Under the pieces are notes generated by a model. It had not been told where the DNA came from and did no database searches. It saw only the letters and a program-made list of their open reading frames with translations. This document shows, in pieces, positions 54,257 to 62,612 of a stretch of 64,000 bases of DNA. The position numbers and the translations under genes are program-made. The first letter of the stretch is position 1. Each line of letters begins with the position of its first letter. The DNA lies in contig OZ245838.1 of assembly GCA_965228735.1 (NCBI GenBank), positions 6,880,001 to 6,944,000 of the forward strand, given 5' to 3'. Source of the stretch: Planctomycetota bacterium. GTDB taxonomy: Bacteria; Planctomycetota; UBA1135; UBA2386.

Positions 54257-54332
54257 TACCCCGTGGTGTAATTGGTAGCACATCTGGTTTTGGTCCAGTC
54301 GGTTCCTGGTTCGAGTCCAGGCGGGGTAACCA
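54257..54332 (+). tRNA. tRNA-Gln (anticodon TTG)
   Basis: Acceptor stem TACCCCG/CGGGGTA, D arm GTGT/GCAC, anticodon loop TTTTGGT, T arm CCTGG-TTCGAGT-CCAGG, encoded CCA. Confidence 0.97.
54288..54332 (+). repeat. attL core (3' part of tRNA-Gln)
   Basis: TTTTGGTCCAGTCGGTTCCTGGTTCGAGTCCAGGCGGGGTAACCA, identical to 62568-62612. Confidence 0.95.
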
Positions 54333-54411
54333 CTCTCAAGAACTGCTGAGCGTCGCACTTGCGACGAACCGGCTTCGGGCCGTGCGGCACCTGGATTCGC
54401 CCTTCGGGTCA

Positions 54412-54436
54412 GTGTCCAGCCATTTGTGTCCAGCCA
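54412..54436 (+). repeat. Candidate integrase arm-type sites (2 x GTGTCCAGCCA)
   Basis: Exact 11-bp direct repeats at 54412 and 54426; the reverse complement occurs at 60534-60544 and 62403-62413. Confidence 0.7.
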
Positions 54437-54455
54437 GAGCACCGGAGGCTTCCCG

Positions 54456-55877
54456 ATGCCGTCCAGCAGTCGCCGCACCAAGCGGTCCAAGTTCCATCCC
54501 CGCACGCCGCAGTTGCGCCGCCACAGTCGCGGCCGCGCGATCGTCACCTTGTCCGGTGAGACCCACTTCCTCGGCGCGTGGCCACCTGACGCGGCGGCCC
54601 ACCGCGCGTACGCGGAGCTCCTCGAGCAGTGGGAGGCGAACGGCCGGCAGCCCATCAAGTCCGTCGTGGAGACGTGCGCGAGTGCTCAGCGCGACGCGGA
54701 ACGGCTCGCCGAGCGGTTGGGCGTGACCGTTGACCAGGCGGAGCGGGTGCGCGTGCTGGCGATCGAGATGAGCCTGAGCCACGCCGAGGCGCTGGCGCTC
54801 GCGCGCGTGCGGCACGTCGACCTGTTCGAGCCGCAGGAGCCGGTCGCCTCGGTGCGGGACGCGCTCGCGGACTACGAGGCGCACATCGACGGCATCGGCA
54901 AGTACACCAAGGGCGGCGCGCGGACGACGGAGCGGTCACTTATCGACCGAGTCGTCCGCGAGTTCGTCGAGCAGTACGGCGACGTGCCCGTGAGCGAGCT
55001 CGGCAAGCGCCACCTGGTCGGCTACCGCCGCTGGCTCGAGGTGGACAACCCGCACTTGACGGTGAGCGGCATCCGCAGGAAGACCGCGACCATCAAGCGC
55101 GCCCTGGCGTGGCTCTACGAGGGCGAGGTGCTGACGCCCGAGCAGTGGCTCGCCGTCGACTCCGTGCGGCAGCTTCGGCGCAGCGACCTCCCCGAGCGCG
55201 ACGTGCGCAAGCCGAAGCGCGAGGTGACGCTCGAGGAGGCCGAGGCCGTCGCCGAGAATGCCGGGCGGGTCATCGGGGCGATGGTGCTCACGCAAGCGTT
55301 GACGGCGTGCCGGCCTGGCGAGGTGGTCGCGATGAAGCACGGCGACATCGACCGCACGCCGGTCGTCGGCCCTGACGGCGTGAGCTACTGGACGTGGCAC
55401 CTGCGCACGCACAAGACCTCGCACCACGACCCCGAGGCTCGGACCATTCCGCTCGGACCGCGGGCGCAGCAGATTCTCGGCCAGTTCCGCGGCTTCGGCG
55501 CCGCGTTCGTGTTCCAGCCGCGCGACATGGTCGCCGACCGTCGCCGTGAGCAGCGCGAGCGCCGGAAGACTCCCGTGCAGCCGAGCCAGCAGGCACGCGA
55601 CAGAAGGCCGAAGCGCCCCGTTGCCGCGCAGTTCGACACCGACCTCTACAACCGATGCGTGCTGCGAGCCATCGCGCGCACGAAGGGCGTGGCGAGGTTC
55701 ACGGTCCACCAGCTTCGGCACGGCGCGTTGTCGCGCATCGCACGGACCGAGGGTCCGCTCGCGGCGCAGGCCATCGCAGGGCACAAGCACCTGACGACGA
55801 CGCAGGGCTACGTGCACCACGCACGCGACGACGCATTGCGTGCGGCGGCGTGCCTGGACGGCGCGCAGGTCGGCTAG
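54456..55877 (+). CDS. int: Tyrosine recombinase/integrase
   Basis: GGAGG SD; catalytic set ACRPGE (R), HKT (K), HQLRH, GHKH, QGYVH (Y); N-terminal arm-binding-like segment. Confidence 0.95.
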   Translation: MPSSSRRTKRSKFHPRTPQLRRHSRGRAIVTLSGETHFLGAWPPDAAAHRAYAELLEQWEANGRQPIKSVVETCASAQRDAERLAERLGVTVDQAERVRVLAIEMSLSHAEALALARVRHVDLFEPQEPVASVRDALADYEAHIDGIGKYTKGGARTTERSLIDRVVREFVEQYGDVPVSELGKRHLVGYRRWLEVDNPHLTVSGIRRKTATIKRALAWLYEGEVLTPEQWLAVDSVRQLRRSDLPERDVRKPKREVTLEEAEAVAENAGRVIGAMVLTQALTACRPGEVVAMKHGDIDRTPVVGPDGVSYWTWHLRTHKTSHHDPEARTIPLGPRAQQILGQFRGFGAAFVFQPRDMVADRRREQRERRKTPVQPSQQARDRRPKRPVAAQFDTDLYNRCVLRAIARTKGVARFTVHQLRHGALSRIARTEGPLAAQAIAGHKHLTTTQGYVHHARDDALRAAACLDGAQVG

Positions 55878-55980
55878 CATTCACCGCGAGGGGCAACGGT
55901 CCGGGTCGCTCTCGGTCCGTAGGCGGTGGAGCCTCACCGCCGCGCCCCTCGCATTTCAACGAGGCTGCACGGAGGTTCCC

Positions 55981-56610
55981 GTGGCGATTGACTGGACCGC
56001 AGTGATTCACGCCGTCGACGACGACGACGGCATTCGACGATTGCACAAGCGGTGGGCGCACCGCCTCGGAGTCGCCGCAGAGGGCGAGTTCGGGCGGCAG
56101 CTGTTCGACGTGTTGGACGAAGCCGACGACGACCTGCTCGATTCGCAGGCTGAGTTGCGCGTGCGCGTCGATGGCTTCGCGGAACTCGTCTCGCAGGGCG
56201 ACCACGCAGCGCGGTACGACGAGTGTGCGGACTCCACGCTGTTCCTCTCGTTGTTCGTGTCGGCGTCCCCCTCGACGGGTGTGACGGTTGCGGACGTGCT
56301 CGCGCAGGGGCGGAAGATGCTCGCGGAGGTGGGCAAGTGGGTCGCGCGTGCCGAGAACCTAGGGCGGCGATCGGCGACCACGATGACCGCGGCGGAGGAC
56401 CGGCAGATCCAGCGCCGGAATGCTCTGCTGCGATGCGTGCCTGCGCGGTGCGCTGAGGAAGGTCGGCCACCTAGGACCATGACCGAGGTAGTGGGGTGGT
56501 TGAGCGCCGACGAGGGTCTCAACGCCAGCGATAAGACGGTGAAACTCGACCTGCTGGCCTTGCGCGATGACGGCCGCCTGACGCCGGACCAACTACCGCC
56601 GCTCGGCTGA
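55981..56610 (+). CDS. Hypothetical protein with C-terminal wHTH (putative element regulator)
   Basis: GGAGG SD before GTG; TMTEVVGWL..EGLNASDKTVKLDLLALRDDG is HTH-like. Confidence 0.7.
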   Translation: MAIDWTAVIHAVDDDDGIRRLHKRWAHRLGVAAEGEFGRQLFDVLDEADDDLLDSQAELRVRVDGFAELVSQGDHAARYDECADSTLFLSLFVSASPSTGVTVADVLAQGRKMLAEVGKWVARAENLGRRSATTMTAAEDRQIQRRNALLRCVPARCAEEGRPPRTMTEVVGWLSADEGLNASDKTVKLDLLALRDDGRLTPDQLPPLG

Positions 56611-56612
56611 GG

Positions 56613-56639
56613 CTCGGAGTTCTCGGAGTGCTCGGAGTT
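56613..56639 (+). repeat. 3 x 9-bp tandem repeat CTCGGAGT(T/G), putative operator
   Basis: ctcggagtt-ctcggagtg-ctcggagtt in the gap before the Xis-like gene. Confidence 0.65.
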
Positions 56640-56687
56640 GCACCGGGGTAGCCGGCGAGCATCGATATGGGAGGGGGCACTCAGCCA

Positions 56688-56996
56688 ATGAGCACCCCGA
56701 CCAAACACCGTGGCGCGACCGGCGCCCTCTCGACTCTCGAGTCGCCCTGGTGGGTAGACGACGGCGAGCCTCTCACGCTCGCGGCGGCTACCCGCCTGTT
56801 CCCGAGGCGCGCCGATGGGAAGCGCATCAGCCTTTGGACGCTGCATCGGTATCGCGAGCAGGGCGTCGCGTTGGGGCGCGGCCGTCGCCTCCGCCTGCGC
56901 TGCTTTCGCGGGGACGCGAGTTCGTGGGCGACGACGACCGGCGAGATCGGGCGATTCCAACTCGCGCTGACGGAGGCGCGCGGGGGCGACGCCTGA
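56688..56996 (+). CDS. DUF1580-like HTH protein (excisionase/AlpA-like)
   Basis: LTLAAATRLFP...ISLWTLHRY..QG..LRLRC...WATT..I.RF pattern; position upstream of the rep-like gene. Confidence 0.75.
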   Translation: MSTPTKHRGATGALSTLESPWWVDDGEPLTLAAATRLFPRRADGKRISLWTLHRYREQGVALGRGRRLRLRCFRGDASSWATTTGEIGRFQLALTEARGGDA

Positions 56997-56997
56997 G

Positions 56998-58500
56998 ATG
57001 CCCCAGTTCCGCGACTTGCTGGTCGGCCACAGCCCGGGCGCGTCCCCCGAGGCGACGCTCGTGCTCTCCGCGCGCGCGGCGTTCGCCGGCTTGCTGGCCG
57101 CCGGCCGGGCGATGCCGAACCGTTCTCCGCGGGTGCCGACGATAGTCGAGGTCGCGGCCGAGCTCGGCCTCTCTCGTGACGCTGTCCGACGCGGTGACCG
57201 CGAACTGCTCGAGCGCGGCGAGCTCGTGAACGGATCTGACGGGCCTGAGGTCGTTCCTGCCGCTCTGGCGCGGCGTGCCGCTGACCGTCGACGGCTCATC
57301 CGCCTCGACCGCGACGTTCGGTCCCGCGGTCTCCGGCCGAGGACGTTGCTGCTCGCCGGCCTCGTGCGTGCCCAGGCGCGCCCACGCGGCCAGTTCTGGG
57401 CCGGGGTGCCCGTGCTGTCCGACCGACTCGGGCTGCCACCTCGGACGACCGAGCGCGCCCTCGCGGCGGCCCGAAAGGCGGGCGTCGTTCGGTCTCACGT
57501 CGTTCCCGGCTCATGGCGACTCGTGCTGTCGCCAACCGGCGGAAGCAGTGCGTCGCAAAGCGGCGGAAGCAGTGACCCGCAGCCGAGCACTCCGGACGGC
57601 CACCCGGAGCCGACGTCGCGAATGGGCGGGAGCAGTGACGCCGGCCCGGTGTCGCGAAGCGGCGGTCCGAGCGTTGCGAATCGGCGGCCCCCGTGTCGTG
57701 AATCGGCGGCCGGAGTGTCGCGATCCGGCGGAAGCTCTGCGGAAGTGCGGAGTACGGACTCACCTCCGGAACGCGTGGGCGCGCGCGAGACGCCGCCACG
57801 GGCGGCGGGTGAAACCAGAGCCCTGCACGACAGCCGGCAGCAGCAGAGGCCGAACCCGACAGCGGGGCGGGTCGATGTTCGATGGGTCGCCGGCGAGTGG
57901 GCGGTCCGGATGATCGTCGGCAACGGGCGGGAGCAGCTGACCGAAGTCGACGCGGCCCACCTGGCGGCCCTGCTCGATGAGCTCGAACCGCCCGAGGCCG
58001 ACCCCTACGTGCGCGACCCGCGGGCCGTTCGCCGGGAGCGGCTGTCGTTCGCACGGAGCGTCATTCGGTGGGGGCCTTCGCCCGAGATGCTGGCCCGATG
58101 GCTGGCGGTGGCGGTGCCTGTCTACGGCGTCCGAGGGGCTGGCCAGTACCTGCGTCGCACGGTCGAGGGTGGCGGCGACCCTGGCACGCTACTCAGCCGC
58201 CACGGCGGCGGTGAGCAGGCTCTCTACCCCGAGCACGAGGCCGCTCTGCTCGGCGACAGGGCGCGCGAGGTCGCGGGACTGGTGGCGGCCACGGCGGCGG
58301 TCGTTGGTGCTGACGGCGACGCCCGCGAACAACTTGCCACCCAGCTTCGCGACGCCATCGATGCCGGCGACCTGGCGGTTGCTCGCGTGGCGGTGCTCGC
58401 GTTGCTCGACGGCCTACCCGCGCACCCGCTGCGTGTGGCCCGCATCGCAGAGCGAGTCGGCGTGGAGCCCGAACGCATCACGGAGGCGCTGGCGGCATGA
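56998..58500 (+). CDS. Putative replication initiator with tandem wHTH domains
   Basis: HTH motifs EVAAELGLSRDAVRRG..L.ERG and LSDRLGLPPRTTERAL..A..AG; low-complexity linker carrying DNA repeats; C-terminal HTH. Confidence 0.7.
   Translation: MPQFRDLLVGHSPGASPEATLVLSARAAFAGLLAAGRAMPNRSPRVPTIVEVAAELGLSRDAVRRGDRELLERGELVNGSDGPEVVPAALARRAADRRRLIRLDRDVRSRGLRPRTLLLAGLVRAQARPRGQFWAGVPVLSDRLGLPPRTTERALAAARKAGVVRSHVVPGSWRLVLSPTGGSSASQSGGSSDPQPSTPDGHPEPTSRMGGSSDAGPVSRSGGPSVANRRPPCRESAAGVSRSGGSSAEVRSTDSPPERVGARETPPRAAGETRALHDSRQQQRPNPTAGRVDVRWVAGEWAVRMIVGNGREQLTEVDAAHLAALLDELEPPEADPYVRDPRAVRRERLSFARSVIRWGPSPEMLARWLAVAVPVYGVRGAGQYLRRTVEGGGDPGTLLSRHGGGEQALYPEHEAALLGDRAREVAGLVAATAAVVGADGDAREQLATQLRDAIDAGDLAVARVAVLALLDGLPAHPLRVARIAERVGVEPERITEALAA
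57527..57731 (+). repeat. Iteron-like array (7 x ~16 bp, YGTCGCGAAN-CGGCGG), putative origin
   Basis: Copies start at 57527, 57551, 57614, 57650, 57672, 57694 and 57716; the last four have an exact 22-bp period. Confidence 0.8.
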
Positions 58501-58697
58501 TGATCACGCAGCCGAGGCCCGCGTCGTTCAAGTGCGCGAGGTGCGGGCGGCCGACGCTCGCGAAGGACGGGGTTCCCGCTGACCGGTGTTGCACGGCCTG
58601 CAGGCGGGGGAGTGCCGACGCGTCGCTGGCAGCGTGGCGGCATCGGTCTGGCGTGACGCCGACATGGCCGACGAAGCGACCCGAGGGGACGGCATGA
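58497..58697 (+). CDS. Small Zn-finger-like protein
   Basis: CARC...CTAC; ATGA overlaps at both ends. Confidence 0.6.
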   Translation: MMITQPRPASFKCARCGRPTLAKDGVPADRCCTACRRGSADASLAAWRHRSGVTPTWPTKRPEGTA

Positions 58698-59026
58698 CCG
58701 ATCAGCGAAACATGCGGCGGCTTTCGCGCGTGCTCGTGGGGCTCTACCGCGACACCGTCCCCGGCGTCGATTCGGACGGCGCTCCGACCGTCGTGGGGTG
58801 GACTCCGTCCGACCTCGAGGGCGATGCGCTGATTGCAGCCGTCGATCGGGCCGACCCGGCGCTTCGGTGGCTGTCGTGGCCGGAGCCGTTTGAGGCGGTC
58901 GTGTTCCGCGCGTGGTCGGTACTTCACCGAGAGTCCGCGCGCCGCGTGATCGACGAGGCCGAAGCGCAGGGCGCATCGCCCGAGGATGTCGCTCGGTGGC
59001 GGCGGAAGCTGGAGACGGGCGCATGA
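58694..59026 (+). CDS. Hypothetical protein
   Basis: ATGA-coupled; GAGGGG SD. Confidence 0.65.
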   Translation: MTDQRNMRRLSRVLVGLYRDTVPGVDSDGAPTVVGWTPSDLEGDALIAAVDRADPALRWLSWPEPFEAVVFRAWSVLHRESARRVIDEAEAQGASPEDVARWRRKLETGA

Positions 59027-59256
59027 CAGCCACCATCGCCGACCTGGTCCGCTCGCGGATGGTGGACCTCGGCGCCGACCGCGACGACGTTCTCGCGGCG
59101 GGTCACGCACTCGACCACGAGCGCGGACCGCATGCGCTGTCGCAACTCGTCGCGGAGGTGCGCGCGTGGACACGCACCGGATGGATGCCGCTCGACCCGC
59201 TCGCGTACTACGTCATCTCGCGGCTGCGCCAGGCCGGCGTGTGGAGGGCGACGTGA
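59023..59256 (+). CDS. Hypothetical protein
   Basis: ATGA-coupled; GGAG SD. Confidence 0.65.
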   Translation: MTATIADLVRSRMVDLGADRDDVLAAGHALDHERGPHALSQLVAEVRAWTRTGWMPLDPLAYYVISRLRQAGVWRAT

Positions 59257-59552
59257 GCGAACCTCGAGCCGTTTCGATCGACACGCTCGTCCGGGCACGG
59301 CAGCGACGGGCCGCCGCCGAACGTCAGGTCGCACAACTGAAGGCGACCGTTGCCCAGCTGCACGAAGAACTCGCCGACGCGCGGCGCGAGATCCGCCGCC
59401 TGCAACAGATCAACCAGACCAACCAGGCCGGCACCGTGCCGGTCGCAACCGAGAGAAGCGATGAAGGCGAAGACCAAGAGCACGAAACCGACCCACCCAG
59501 ACCCGAGGCCGGGCAGCAGCAACGCCGCCCAGGACCACGGTCAGCGCCGTAG
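59253..59552 (+). CDS. Hypothetical coiled-coil protein
   Basis: GTGA-coupled; GGAGG SD; heptad segment VAQLKATVAQLHEELADARREIRRL. Confidence 0.6.
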   Translation: MSEPRAVSIDTLVRARQRRAAAERQVAQLKATVAQLHEELADARREIRRLQQINQTNQAGTVPVATERSDEGEDQEHETDPPRPEAGQQQRRPGPRSAP

Positions 59553-59676
59553 CCACGAGTCCTTGAACGCCACGCCGAAGACGGCGGGCAAGGAGTGGCA
59601 ACGCGCAATCGCCGAGTCCGGCGGCTCGACGGTGCACGGCCAGTTCGACGGCCGCACCGGCAAGCGCAAGCAGTAG
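59461..59676 (+). CDS. Small basic hypothetical protein
   Basis: GC3-rich codons; overlaps the tail of the previous ORF by 92 bp. Confidence 0.5.
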   Translation: MKAKTKSTKPTHPDPRPGSSNAAQDHGQRRSHESLNATPKTAGKEWQRAIAESGGSTVHGQFDGRTGKRKQ

Positions 59677-59708
59677 ATCCACCACCAACCCGAACCAGGA
59701 GAATCCCA

Positions 59709-60206
59709 ATGACCGAAGAACACGACGACGACATCGACAACCCCGACGACCGCTCGCAGATGAGCGTCACCGAGCGACTGGCGAAGCTCGAGTCCGAGCG
59801 TGTCCTCGCGCGACTCGAGCGCGATCACCAACTCGGCGGCGAGCACGCGCAGGAAGTCCTCGACATCGTCGCGTCCAGCGGCGGAACCATCAGTGAGGGC
59901 GAGGCCGTCCGCGTAGTCGAGGAGCGGCACGCGCTCGGCTCCGTTCGACCAATGCACAGCCACGGGCAGATGCGCGCGCAGTCTCGGGGTGGTCCTCGCC
60001 CTCGGCAGAGCCCGCGAGCGGCGCAGCGGGAGCGACTGGCAGCGATCCGCGAACTTGCCCAGCGCGACAAGCGAGCAGCAGCGGCCGAGGCCAGGCTCGA
60101 GCACGGCTCCATGTTGGCCTCCGCAATGAACTGGTCGCATGGCGCGAGCGAGGGACGAGACGCGGGGACGATTCGGTCCCGCCACGGCCTCGTCGCGCAG
60201 CAGTGA
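59709..60206 (+). CDS. Hypothetical protein with acidic N-terminus, helical
   Basis: AGGAG SD before ATG 59709. Confidence 0.7.
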   Translation: MTEEHDDDIDNPDDRSQMSVTERLAKLESERVLARLERDHQLGGEHAQEVLDIVASSGGTISEGEAVRVVEERHALGSVRPMHSHGQMRAQSRGGPRPRQSPRAAQRERLAAIRELAQRDKRAAAAEARLEHGSMLASAMNWSHGASEGRDAGTIRSRHGLVAQQ

Positions 60207-60658
60207 CCGCGCAAACGGCATCCCCGGAGTCCCGGAGGGGCACCTGGTTCCATCAGGGCCGGGGGTGCTGTTCGCGATGCGCACGGCGACTCGCGGGCAA
60301 CCCCGACCTCGAGCCGGAGTCCCAGCGCGGCGGAGCTCCCCCCGGGTATGGGGGGGCGACCGCTCCGCCCTTCCCCGCGGCCGACCGGCAGGCTCGCCGC
60401 CTGGTGCCCAGGACGCACTCCTGGCAGCGGCTCCCTCGCACGAACTCGCGAGGGGCCTGCCATGGGTCGCCCAACGAGATCGGCGCTCAGAACGCCTCTG
60501 GCGCTGTGCGTCCACGGCCCCGCTTGGACACAATGGCTGGACACAGCGCCTCTCGGCGCCTGCCCGGCACCTCGACGATGACCTGACCGGCTCGCCAGCC
60601 CTGCAACCATCGGGCTTGCAGCCGACCACCTGAACCGACGACCGTCTGCTACAGAGCC

Positions 60659-61432
60659 ATGGCCATCCGCTTCCGTGAACGTGCCCGAGGCCACTGGCTC
60701 GACCGAGCCCGGCCGCAGCCTGCGCCGTCGTGGCGCGCGCCGGCCGCCTACATCTTCCCGGGCGAGACCGACAGCGCCGGCAACGTGCTGAAGCCGCTCG
60801 CTGCGCCCGCGGCGCCAACCGTCCCGGAATCTTCGGCTGATGGCGTCGGCCTTTCGGCCACAGCCGCCCCAGCCCTCACATGGCGAGCGCTGGAACGCCA
60901 TCCGGAGGGTGAACAGTCGGGCAGCAACCGCGAGCGGACAGGGGGTCGCAAGAGACCACGCGAACCGCGGTCCGGGAGCAACCGGCCACTGCGCCCGATA
61001 CCCACCGATCCGGTGCGGATCGATTGCGTTCTGCGGACGCTCCAGGGGCAGACGGTCCGCGCATCCAAGTGGCACCGGCTGCGGTCGCGGGCGTTGTTGG
61101 CGGCGTGCGTGTCGGCGAGCCCGTCGACGACGTTTGCGGCCCTAACGCGGATGACGCACCAGCAGGTCAGGAGCGAGCTTCGTGCGCCGCGCGAGGGCTG
61201 GCGCTGGATTCGCGGGTGGTTGGCCCTTCGCGCGCAGGCGCTGGGTGCGGCGGCTGAGTCGTCGCCGTGGACGTCGTTCCCGCCGCTCTCGGCCGGCAAC
61301 TATCGCAAGCTGGCCGAGGGCTTGGTGCGGCTGCTTGAGTCGTCGAAGGTGCCGGCGTGGCGCCCGTCCGCGCTGCTGCTCGCGACCTGGGGCGGGCTGA
61401 CGATCTACTCGCACTCCGAGGTCTCGCGATGA
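60659..61432 (+). CDS. Hypothetical protein
   Basis: 257-aa ORF coupled by ATGA to the next gene; the middle part is low-complexity, so the start is uncertain. Confidence 0.5.
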   Translation: MAIRFRERARGHWLDRARPQPAPSWRAPAAYIFPGETDSAGNVLKPLAAPAAPTVPESSADGVGLSATAAPALTWRALERHPEGEQSGSNRERTGGRKRPREPRSGSNRPLRPIPTDPVRIDCVLRTLQGQTVRASKWHRLRSRALLAACVSASPSTTFAALTRMTHQQVRSELRAPREGWRWIRGWLALRAQALGAAAESSPWTSFPPLSAGNYRKLAEGLVRLLESSKVPAWRPSALLLATWGGLTIYSHSEVSR

Positions 61433-61653
61433 CGGCGGCTGGCGTTCCGTATCACCGGGCCGACCCGAAGGCCGAGAAGGCCGGCCCGAGCTTCGCGCGT
61501 GAGTTGCGGGAACTCGAACTGCGATACCGCGACGAATCGGTCCGGCTGCTCGAGGAGTCCAAGCGGTTGGCGGCGGAGGCTGTGGACGCAAAGAGGTCCG
61601 CCGAATCGTGCGCCACATGGCGTCGAAGCCTGGGGACCGAGCCCGACGCTTGA
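61429..61653 (+). CDS. Small coiled-coil hypothetical protein
   Basis: ATGA-coupled; GAGG SD. Confidence 0.55.
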   Translation: MTAAGVPYHRADPKAEKAGPSFARELRELELRYRDESVRLLEESKRLAAEAVDAKRSAESCATWRRSLGTEPDA

Positions 61654-61657
61654 GGGG

Positions 61658-62386
61658 CTACACCCGCAGGACCCAGTTCAGGTTCATGGAGAAGATCCAA
61701 CCGATTCCGAGCGCTCCCAGAGCGAACATCGCCGTGGCGACATGGAGAGCCACGGGGTTGTGCCTCCCAGCGGCATCGAAGACGGCCCAGAACACGGCGT
61801 CCCAATCGACCTCCTCCGTATCCCTATCCGCGAAGTCCGCCCACTGCTCACCGTTCTTGACGAGGCCGAACTCGTGGAACTTCTCCGGCAGCTTCTCCTC
61901 GCTCGGATACGAGAACAGGTAAAGCGACTGGGACGTGCCGATGCGTCGCCCGGCGGAAAAGCCGAGGGGTCGCCCGATCTGTTCCGGACCATGTGCGATG
62001 CGTTGCGCGTAGCGCATGAGGTGCTGGGGCTGCTTCCTCGACGCCTTGAACGAGCCCACGTCCGCATGGTCCTTGATGACCTCCGGACAGCGCCAGTCGA
62101 ACAGCAAGTGCGCCAACGTGAAAGCCACCGCGGTTCCGAACAGCACCTGCCATCGGAACGGCAACTGGAGGCTCTGCACGAAGTCAGCAGCCCACTCCGG
62201 TTCGGTCACCCGTTCCCGGAGTTCCAGCACGACTCGAGCGGCGATCGGAACGGCGCCGATCCAGATCATCGAGCTGCGAACGAGTCGGTTCTGCCCCCAT
62301 GCGCGTAGGCGCTGCCATTCGAGCCACGGTCGCTTCTCGGCGAGTGTCGCGTCTGGGTTGACCGGGTGCCGAACGATCGACTTCAC
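61658..62386 (-). CDS. Cargo membrane protein (about 3 TM), function unknown
   Basis: Only antisense gene in the element; segments SSMIWIGAVPIAA, LPFRWQVLF..CPEVIK and a C-terminal TM. Start uncertain (62386-62455). Confidence 0.7.
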   Translation of the reverse strand: MKSIVRHPVNPDATLAEKRPWLEWQRLRAWGQNRLVRSSMIWIGAVPIAARVVLELRERVTEPEWAADFVQSLQLPFRWQVLFGTAVAFTLAHLLFDWRCPEVIKDHADVGSFKASRKQPQHLMRYAQRIAHGPEQIGRPLGFSAGRRIGTSQSLYLFSYPSEEKLPEKFHEFGLVKNGEQWADFADRDTEEVDWDAVFWAVFDAAGRHNPVALHVATAMFALGALGIGWIFSMNLNWVLRV

Positions 62387-62567
62387 GGCGTCACTGTAGC
62401 CATGGCTGGACACGGGGCCCAGTTGTGTCCACCGGGCATGCTCAGACATGCACACCCTTGCACGTCACCGGGCTTCTGGTAGGCTGAGAAGGTCGACCCG
62501 ACATCGCGGGTCTAGGTGCTGTTTCGAGACCGATTCCGAGGGTTTGACTCTCCGTGGCTGGCCGAGA

Positions 62568-62612
62568 TTTTGGTCCAGTCGGTTCCTGGTTCGAGTCCAG
62601 GCGGGGTAACCA
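62568..62612 (+). repeat. attR core (duplicated tRNA-Gln 3' end)
   Basis: 45/45 identity to 54288-54332; the tRNA 5' half is absent. Confidence 0.95.

Follow-up and report, generated by a model that had tools for sequence, protein, structure and literature searches.

The locus studied here raises the question of what a small chromosomal island with an integrase and a likely replicon of its own, and with no recognised packaging or transfer gene, might be and how it would spread. It lies in a stretch of 64,000 nucleotides from a Planctomycetota bacterium (GenBank assembly GCA_965228735.1, contig OZ245838.1, positions 6,880,001 to 6,944,000), hereafter the window, whose numbering is used below unless another location is named; the host genome is a single contig of 7.19 Mb. 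An earlier note on this DNA had proposed a satellite or integrative replicon, possibly undescribed, that belongs to a Planctomycetota host and needs a helper for transfer. This proposal holds at the level of a family: att-bounded islands with the same initiator turned up in the search for syntenic relatives and carry partial sets of phage late genes, a public homologue is labelled Planctomycetota, and a literature search, whose scope excluded most subscription papers and supplements, yielded no paper that links phage satellites to planctomycetes. We consider it likely that these islands form an undescribed satellite family of one planctomycete family, and we put at about one half the probability that the element itself is a minimal phage satellite that has no terminase and relies on a helper phage for packaging.

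The element is bounded by two direct repeats of 45 bp, the attL core (54288..54332, + strand) and the attR core (62568..62612, +), which are identical at 45/45 positions and spaced 8,280 bp apart. Its target is a tRNA-Gln(TTG) gene (54257..54332, +) with the anticodon at tRNA position 34, and the repeat runs from position 32, where the anticodon loop begins, exactly as the earlier note had described. Anticodon-centred integration sites are a common class among islands, with 2,083 cases in Islander (PMC4383910). A genome of the same genus has an empty tRNA-Gln site next to the same upstream gene for an extracytoplasmic function (ECF) sigma factor (82% identity), and none of 29 other tRNA-Gln loci compared had a match to any open reading frame (ORF) of the element within 1.5 kb. 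The island is an intact 8.3-kb element inserted in tRNA-Gln.

The recombination module begins with a tyrosine integrase of 473 aa (54456..55877, +) that matches PF00589 and phrog_1. Residues R286, K320, R421, H443, and Y452 are invariant across 10 aligned relatives and H418 fills out the HxxR motif, so that the catalytic set is intact as claimed. The protein has an insertion of about 55 aa after the arm-binding domain that is missing in nine relatives; this insertion is helical and lies between the arm-binding and core-binding parts (54660-54830). An 11-bp motif, GTGTCCAGCCA, occurs six times in the genome and four times within the element: as two direct copies past attL (54412..54436, +), as one inverted copy before attR (62403..62413, -), and as one inverted copy at 60534. 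The last of these belongs to an internal inverted pair (60521..60544, -), one copy exact and one with three mismatches, 115 bp upstream of the gene o11, and no att core is found near this pair. We read the motif as the likely arm-type site of the integrase because a relic attL at tRNA-Arg(ACG) (host genome 9602-9850) carries the same motif pair beside the truncated 5' end of a related integrase; an attR counterpart of the relic was not found.

Two small genes follow. ORF2 (209 aa; 55981..56610, +) is a putative regulator by position only, with no family match and no significant likeness to the genes that relatives have in its place. ORF3 (102 aa; 56688..56996, +) is a DUF1580-related, excisionase (Xis)-like protein: DUF1580 is matched by seven of its ten aligned relatives, not by ORF3 itself, and HTH_17 by two of the ten at an E value of about 0.015. 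In many islands an ORF3-like protein is encoded between the integrase and the replicase, and ORF3 is a likely directionality factor. The DUF1580-type relatives also agree with the phylum given for the host. The gene order proposed earlier (integrase, winged helix-turn-helix regulator, Xis/AlpA-like gene, iteron-bearing initiator) stands for the integrase and the initiator; the winged-helix label of ORF2 is only putative, and ORF3, which has no Pfam match, does not belong to an AlpA family (PF05930/PF12728). We found no literature on DUF1580, most subscription papers being outside the scope of the search.

ORF4 (500 aa; 56998..58500, +) is the likely replication initiator, judged by its gene anatomy: an N-terminal part resembling helix-turn-helix (HTH) domains, a linker encoded by iterons, and a C-terminal domain. 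Its profile matches are weak and point to HTH families and to the phage replication initiators phrog_270/391 (E 0.005-0.007). Seven iteron-like repeats of 16 bp lie inside the gene (57527..57731, +) at spacings of 24, 63, 36, 22, 22, and 22 bp, the sole cluster of at least five in the genome, and probably form the replication origin. All 11 initiator relatives examined likewise have phased repeats in this linker, in three to nine copies and in differing reading frames. Lambda O binds iterons and recruits the host helicase, and an iteron origin placed inside a gene is an arrangement known from phages. The element resembles the lambda O/ori arrangement in that its iterons lie within the initiator gene, where the linker between two domains is encoded; it differs in the weakness of the profile likeness, and neither a P-like loader nor an AT-rich tract was identified in it.

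The initiator ties the element to other islands. Its family comprises 82 clusters at E 1e-10 or better. Among 90 genomes of the host family, 11 have strong matches and seven more have weak, short ones; the initiator was found in none of 60 genomes from other families of the host order and in none of 395 genomes of the phylum outside the host family (three candidates scored per genome). It was also absent from pattern scans of IMG/VR, from phage and plasmid records, and from an exact-pattern genome scan, and a word-index search returned only the self-match. Four other complete att-bounded elements (7.7-17.4 kb) carry the initiator, and all four have a small terminase gene (TerS). The 17.36-kb island L049 (1387-18801) lies in tRNA-Leu (CAA) of the same host genome and carries an initiator paralogue, a motif like the phage cohesive-end site (cos), TerS, an S49 head protease, and a tape measure; it is the clearest satellite candidate in the host genome, and our element compared with it shows a ratio of nonsynonymous to synonymous substitutions (dN/dS) of 0.31-0.42. 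L044 (15.0 kb) has TerS, a protease, and a tape measure. L040 (14.8 kb, in a transfer-messenger RNA (tmRNA) gene) has TerS, a portal, a scaffold-like gene, and a relative of the element's gene o13; its initiator gene is split over two frames inside the iteron linker (L040:10498-12037). L041 (7.67 kb) has TerS only; it is complete at this size, so that the smallness of our element does not point to truncation. Among the ORFs scanned in these four islands, which included all those of at least 200 aa other than integrases and initiators, neither a capsid nor a large terminase (TerL) was recognised.

In a tree of 19 initiators (without L043, L023, L202, and L207), the element groups with L049 and L040 at support values of 99/98. 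A grouping with four elements of serine-recombinase type, whose partner gene we take to be DUF2924, was rejected by the approximately unbiased test (p-AU 6e-5), the group having been chosen after the tree was inspected. The 18 other loci in the tree comprise nine small islands with packaging or virion genes (two of them counted solely by likeness to DUF5681 proteins), three prophage-like loci, the four serine-recombinase elements, and two loci without context. A second link is the gene o7 (77 aa; 59023..59256, +), whose family stands, in related islands, ahead of genes for packaging or the virion: seven of eight relatives examined adjoin TerS-like, TerL, tape-measure, or tail genes and the eighth lies at a contig end, two weak matches in one genome (G083) being left out of this count. 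A GGGTCC(C/T) motif with a G-run, presumably akin to the lambda cos region, lies upstream of TerS in 22 of the 23 loci examined (L098-L121; taken from 30, with seven short or weak matches omitted) and is a usable packaging-site marker in the host family. A helical protein without a known family also recurs among the sister islands.

The element itself is poor in recognisable functions. Scans against Pfam, PHROGs, NCBIfam, and PADLOC, the last covering nine ORFs, revealed no primase, helicase, terminase, capsid, relaxase, type IV secretion system (T4SS), or defence family, which confirms what had been noticed from the sequence for all but the defence families. The slot that holds TerS, the cos-like motif, and the helical protein in the sisters is occupied here by orphan ORFs and a spacer of 450 bp. 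Eight small co-oriented ORFs and one antisense gene follow ORF4, the number claimed before. The first is o5 (66 aa, with a CxxC..CxxC pattern; 58497..58697, +), which has the weakest coding signal, followed by o6 (110 aa; 58694..59026, +), o7, the coiled-coil protein o8 (99 aa; 59253..59552, +), o9 (71 aa; 59461..59676, +), which overlaps the tail of o8, and the helical protein o10 (165 aa; 59709..60206, +). Beyond the spacer lie o11 (257 aa; 60659..61432, +), o12 (74 aa; 61429..61653, +), and the cargo gene o13 (about 250-265 aa; 61658..62455, -), which has a hydrophobic C-terminal segment and two relatives in other islands. Stop and start codons overlap by four bases at five places among the ORFs of the element, and the coding score is best in the sense frame for all ORFs except o5, where it is negative, and o10, where sense and antisense tie. 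A lead to phrog_15086 turned out to concern a housekeeping family.

The slot of o10 is taken by scaffold- or protease-like genes in the sisters. We found no homologue of o10 among 5.8 billion proteins of similar length and no atlas match; the 90 family genomes gave weak matches alone (E 4e-4 or worse), many with internal stops. A single-sequence model reached a predicted local distance difference test score (pLDDT) of 71, with a best Z of 5.0 and no Foldseek match at E 0.001. With neither homologue nor fold match, we set aside the reading of o10 as a scaffold.

The non-coding spacer (60207..60658) contains a hairpin of a C-run and a G-run (60338-60356) and is a candidate cis site. Its RNA fold has a z score of -1.58, and no Rfam family and no excess of promoters or terminators was detected in it. 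A lambda-type cos was rejected, since the motif of the sisters does not rise above background here. The hairpin was also considered as the packaging site of a different type of phage: its exact 18-mer has no match in IMG/VR, and a relaxed pattern has two, one of them between HNH and terminase genes. A looser pattern gave 56 loci, 46 of which were tested (the ten omitted being mostly near-duplicates) by searching 62 of 103 candidate ORFs: a terminase lay within 1.5 kb in 5/46 and a DnaB gene in 4/46, not far from a rough chance estimate of 2-3. An HK97-type TerL was found in one of 91 family genomes, and no HK97 capsid was found in the host genome.

From these parts we propose the following course for a satellite. 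The integrase and the DUF1580-like ORF3 would excise a circle of 8.28 kb by crossover in the anticodon loop; ORF4 would bind the iterons and recruit the host helicase, as lambda O does; o8-o10 and the spacer may be a helper interface that replaces the late module of the sisters; and a helper terminase would package concatemers of the element, as with the PICMIs (phage-inducible chromosomal minimalist islands). The excision and replication steps appear well grounded in anatomy. For packaging the argument is one of kinship alone, the step being proposed because the initiator and o7 are kin to those of TerS-bearing islands. A broader scheme, which we offer as speculation at long odds, would see in the family a replicon like that of lambda O, to which exchangeable late modules are fitted: long-tailed helpers would be served by cos, TerS, protease, and tape measure, short-tailed ones by portal and scaffold, and related islands would have tail-tip genes. 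Our element would then hold a third, orphan interface (o8-o10 and the spacer), with the internal arm-type pair tying expression of o11-o12 to the state of excision.

The earlier note had called the element probably active, and public sequencing runs do not show this. The stretch is present in 13 runs from six studies, with no RNA run listed among them, and eight of 24 listed runs were examined. In four of these (X1, X2, X4, and X5) the element assembled as one contig of 8,295 nt with zero differences and a separate 45-nt contig for the core, a contig graph that, with the 45-bp core collapsed, is compatible with the integrated and the excised state alike. Read depths of the element, left flank, and right flank were 5.8/4.5/2.6, 9.8/4.2/10.7, 22.3/18.5/19.4, and 3.8/2.2/3.3 in these four runs, and in X8 the element had 5.4-6.3 against 5.6 for the flank. 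Neither host flanks nor element were found in X15 and X17. Because the host flanks are also identical across runs, the runs examined reflect one near-clonal host and not transfer.

Several observations weigh against packaging by a helper. In the five runs that list both, the depth of the element is about that of the flanks, with no clear amplification. A six-frame comparison of the element found no counterpart to the TerS, the scaffold, or the helical protein that the sisters share, and their cos-like motif scores at best 6.0 bits in it, equalled at 968 genome positions, whereas 21 of 22 true sites score 8.6-21.4 bits. The genes o6, o8, o9, o10, and o12 had no relatives in the searches made, the o8-o10/o12 module is missing from all relatives examined, and the spacer is unlike both the co-resident prophage and the other islands compared. 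The initiator is modular and occurs also in non-phage-type elements and in prophages. Finally, L175 and L185, the other complete islands with an o11 relative (11-12 kb, each with an integrase, a Xis-like gene, and a helicase), have no recognised TerS, although one of the two has a weak S49-like match.

Some of these points suit a stranded descendant of the TerS-bearing family, which would have lost or exchanged its packaging module, probably kept excision, and lost the ability to spread, with o11-o13 as captured cargo. All four complete sisters have TerS and this element has neither TerS nor a cos-like site; its initiator shows signs of drift, with a branch of 0.72 against 0.39 and 0.52 and an Ala where 10 of 11 initiators keep a Trp. 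The internal arm-type pair at 60521-60544 might derive from the arm of a former attR, and at tRNA-Arg there is a decayed relic from this integrase lineage. Yet the 45-bp repeats are perfect, the catalytic residues intact, integrase and initiator free of frameshifts, the five stop/start overlaps preserved, and no att core lies past the internal pair, so that we regard stranding as unlikely, if a serious contender. A remnant of a prophage that retained both ends, an immunity region, and an O-like replication gene would explain the phage-type origin and the presence of the initiator family in prophage-like loci (L042, L046, and L047). Such a remnant appears very improbable: not even a fragment of a structural, lysis, or recombination gene was detected in the element, the initiators of prophage type branch outside its clade, complete sisters of comparable size exist, and a search of 50,697 phage records gave no match.

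The element might instead be a conjugative hitchhiker, its spacer an origin of transfer (oriT) mobilised in trans as in iOriT islands and o11 a stand-alone recombinase core-binding domain like MpsB of Salmonella genomic island 1 (SGI1). The o11 family belongs to mobile islands, with five strong relatives in island contexts, among them the TerS-free ones; weak leads connect it to recombinase domains (atlas 0.81; hhalign probability 26% to the XerD-like N-terminal part), and the host genome contains a 79-kb island in tRNA-Gly with a TrwC relaxase (L291, 564827-643678). However, o11 scores no higher than shuffles against local integrase profiles, its family lacks an invariant Tyr or His, and no MpsA-like gene is present; o11 as a recombinase or an MpsA-like relaxase was rejected as not significant (model pLDDT 45, no fold match). 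The spacer scores 25 against the region upstream of trwC and random DNA 24-43, a search of the genome for VirB4 (PF03135) was negative, and the nearest initiators sit in islands with packaging genes. We judge this route distinctly doubtful, and a helper-packaged satellite remains our preferred reading.

A possible helper resides in the same genome, an apparently complete 44-kb prophage in tmRNA (L087-L089, 1861728-1905923) with a capsid (PF20911), portal, scaffold-like gene, TerL, TerS, and a protein of 2,026 aa. It is only a candidate; the element has no significant DNA likeness to it or to the relaxase island. A tandem 16-kb island with a primase-helicase, a scaffold-like gene, and TerL follows this prophage, and the genome has several further small integrase islands. 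Elsewhere, L218:4045-20000, L220:7609-17165, and L039:8420-17281 combine TerS or a tape measure with a protein of 700-1,190 aa that is either a central tail fibre (J-like) or a tail protein; no capsid was recognised in them, and they are possible satellites that would fit helper tails with a tip of their own. L078:1008-8570 (7.5 kb, tRNA-Ala) and L080:1063-14910 (13.8 kb, tRNA-Asp) have three proteins in common (the helical one, one of 130 aa, and one with DUF5681) and are further satellite candidates.

If the satellite reading is right, phage satellites reach a new phylum, and with a replicon type (an initiator, intragenic iterons, and no primase) that would escape satellite models based on primases. 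The family can be traced by its initiator, o7, the shared helical protein, and the cos-like motif, and some of its islands have tape-measure, tail-tip, or portal genes, rarely reported so far in satellites. The element is its least informative member, and the value of the finding comes mostly from the family. With the sisters it shares the initiator with intragenic iterons, the order integrase-xis-initiator, and o7; it differs from them in lacking TerS with the upstream GGGTCC motif and the helical protein.

How does the element compare with known systems? It has no relaxase or T4SS gene of the kind that marks an integrative and mobilizable or conjugative element (IME/ICE). It resembles iOriT islands (10.64898/2026.01.13.699239) and SGI1 with its MpsA/MpsB (PMC6414798) in being integrative and relaxase-free, with a GC-rich spacer with inverted repeats and possibly a recombinase-like small protein, but the spacer is unlike the oriT region of the resident relaxase island and no catalytic MpsA-like protein is encoded. 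Islands transduced by jumbo phages (I55; PMC12595487) share the tDNA site, the tyrosine integrase, the lack of transfer genes, and movement by phage, whereas our element has a likely replicon of its own and no detected defence system. The 11-kb EPIPs of Mycolicibacterium (PMC12822802) carry TerS, scaffold, and tape measure and resemble the sisters L049, L044, L037, L095, and L220; they have a serine integrase and belong to another phylum, and our element has neither that integrase nor TerS nor a tape measure nor the other late genes.

The likeness to phage-inducible chromosomal islands (PICIs) as well as PICMIs that had been suggested for the element is borne out in layout, not in the fis site, AlpA, and primase. 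Compared with the PICIs of SatelliteFinder (PMC10085698), integrase, regulation, and replication come in the conserved order, the size is near the 9.5-kb median, and the sisters add TerS. The integrase is present, the regulator place might be taken by the DUF1580-related ORF3 or the family-less ORF2, and the capsid place might conceivably be that of the orphan o10; with no TerS, no capsid morphogenesis match, and no primase-replicase, the element reaches no more than three of the five core functions, by analogy alone. The PICI model also forbids tail genes, which the sisters carry. Planctomycetes are not mentioned in the main text of that paper, whose supplementary host tables could list such elements. 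PICMIs of Vibrionaceae are packaged as concatemers by a virulent helper, without a TerS of their own (PMC10803314), and like them the element is small, follows the order integrase, regulator, replication, and has no capsid remodelling or terminase gene. The definition of PICMIs asks for insertion next to fis, for AlpA, and for a primase (DUF3987/DUF5906), whereas the element, in a planctomycete host, sits in tRNA-Gln beside an ECF sigma gene and has a DUF1580-related protein and an iteron-bearing initiator. While it lacks these three sequence features, by analogy it would work most like a PICMI.

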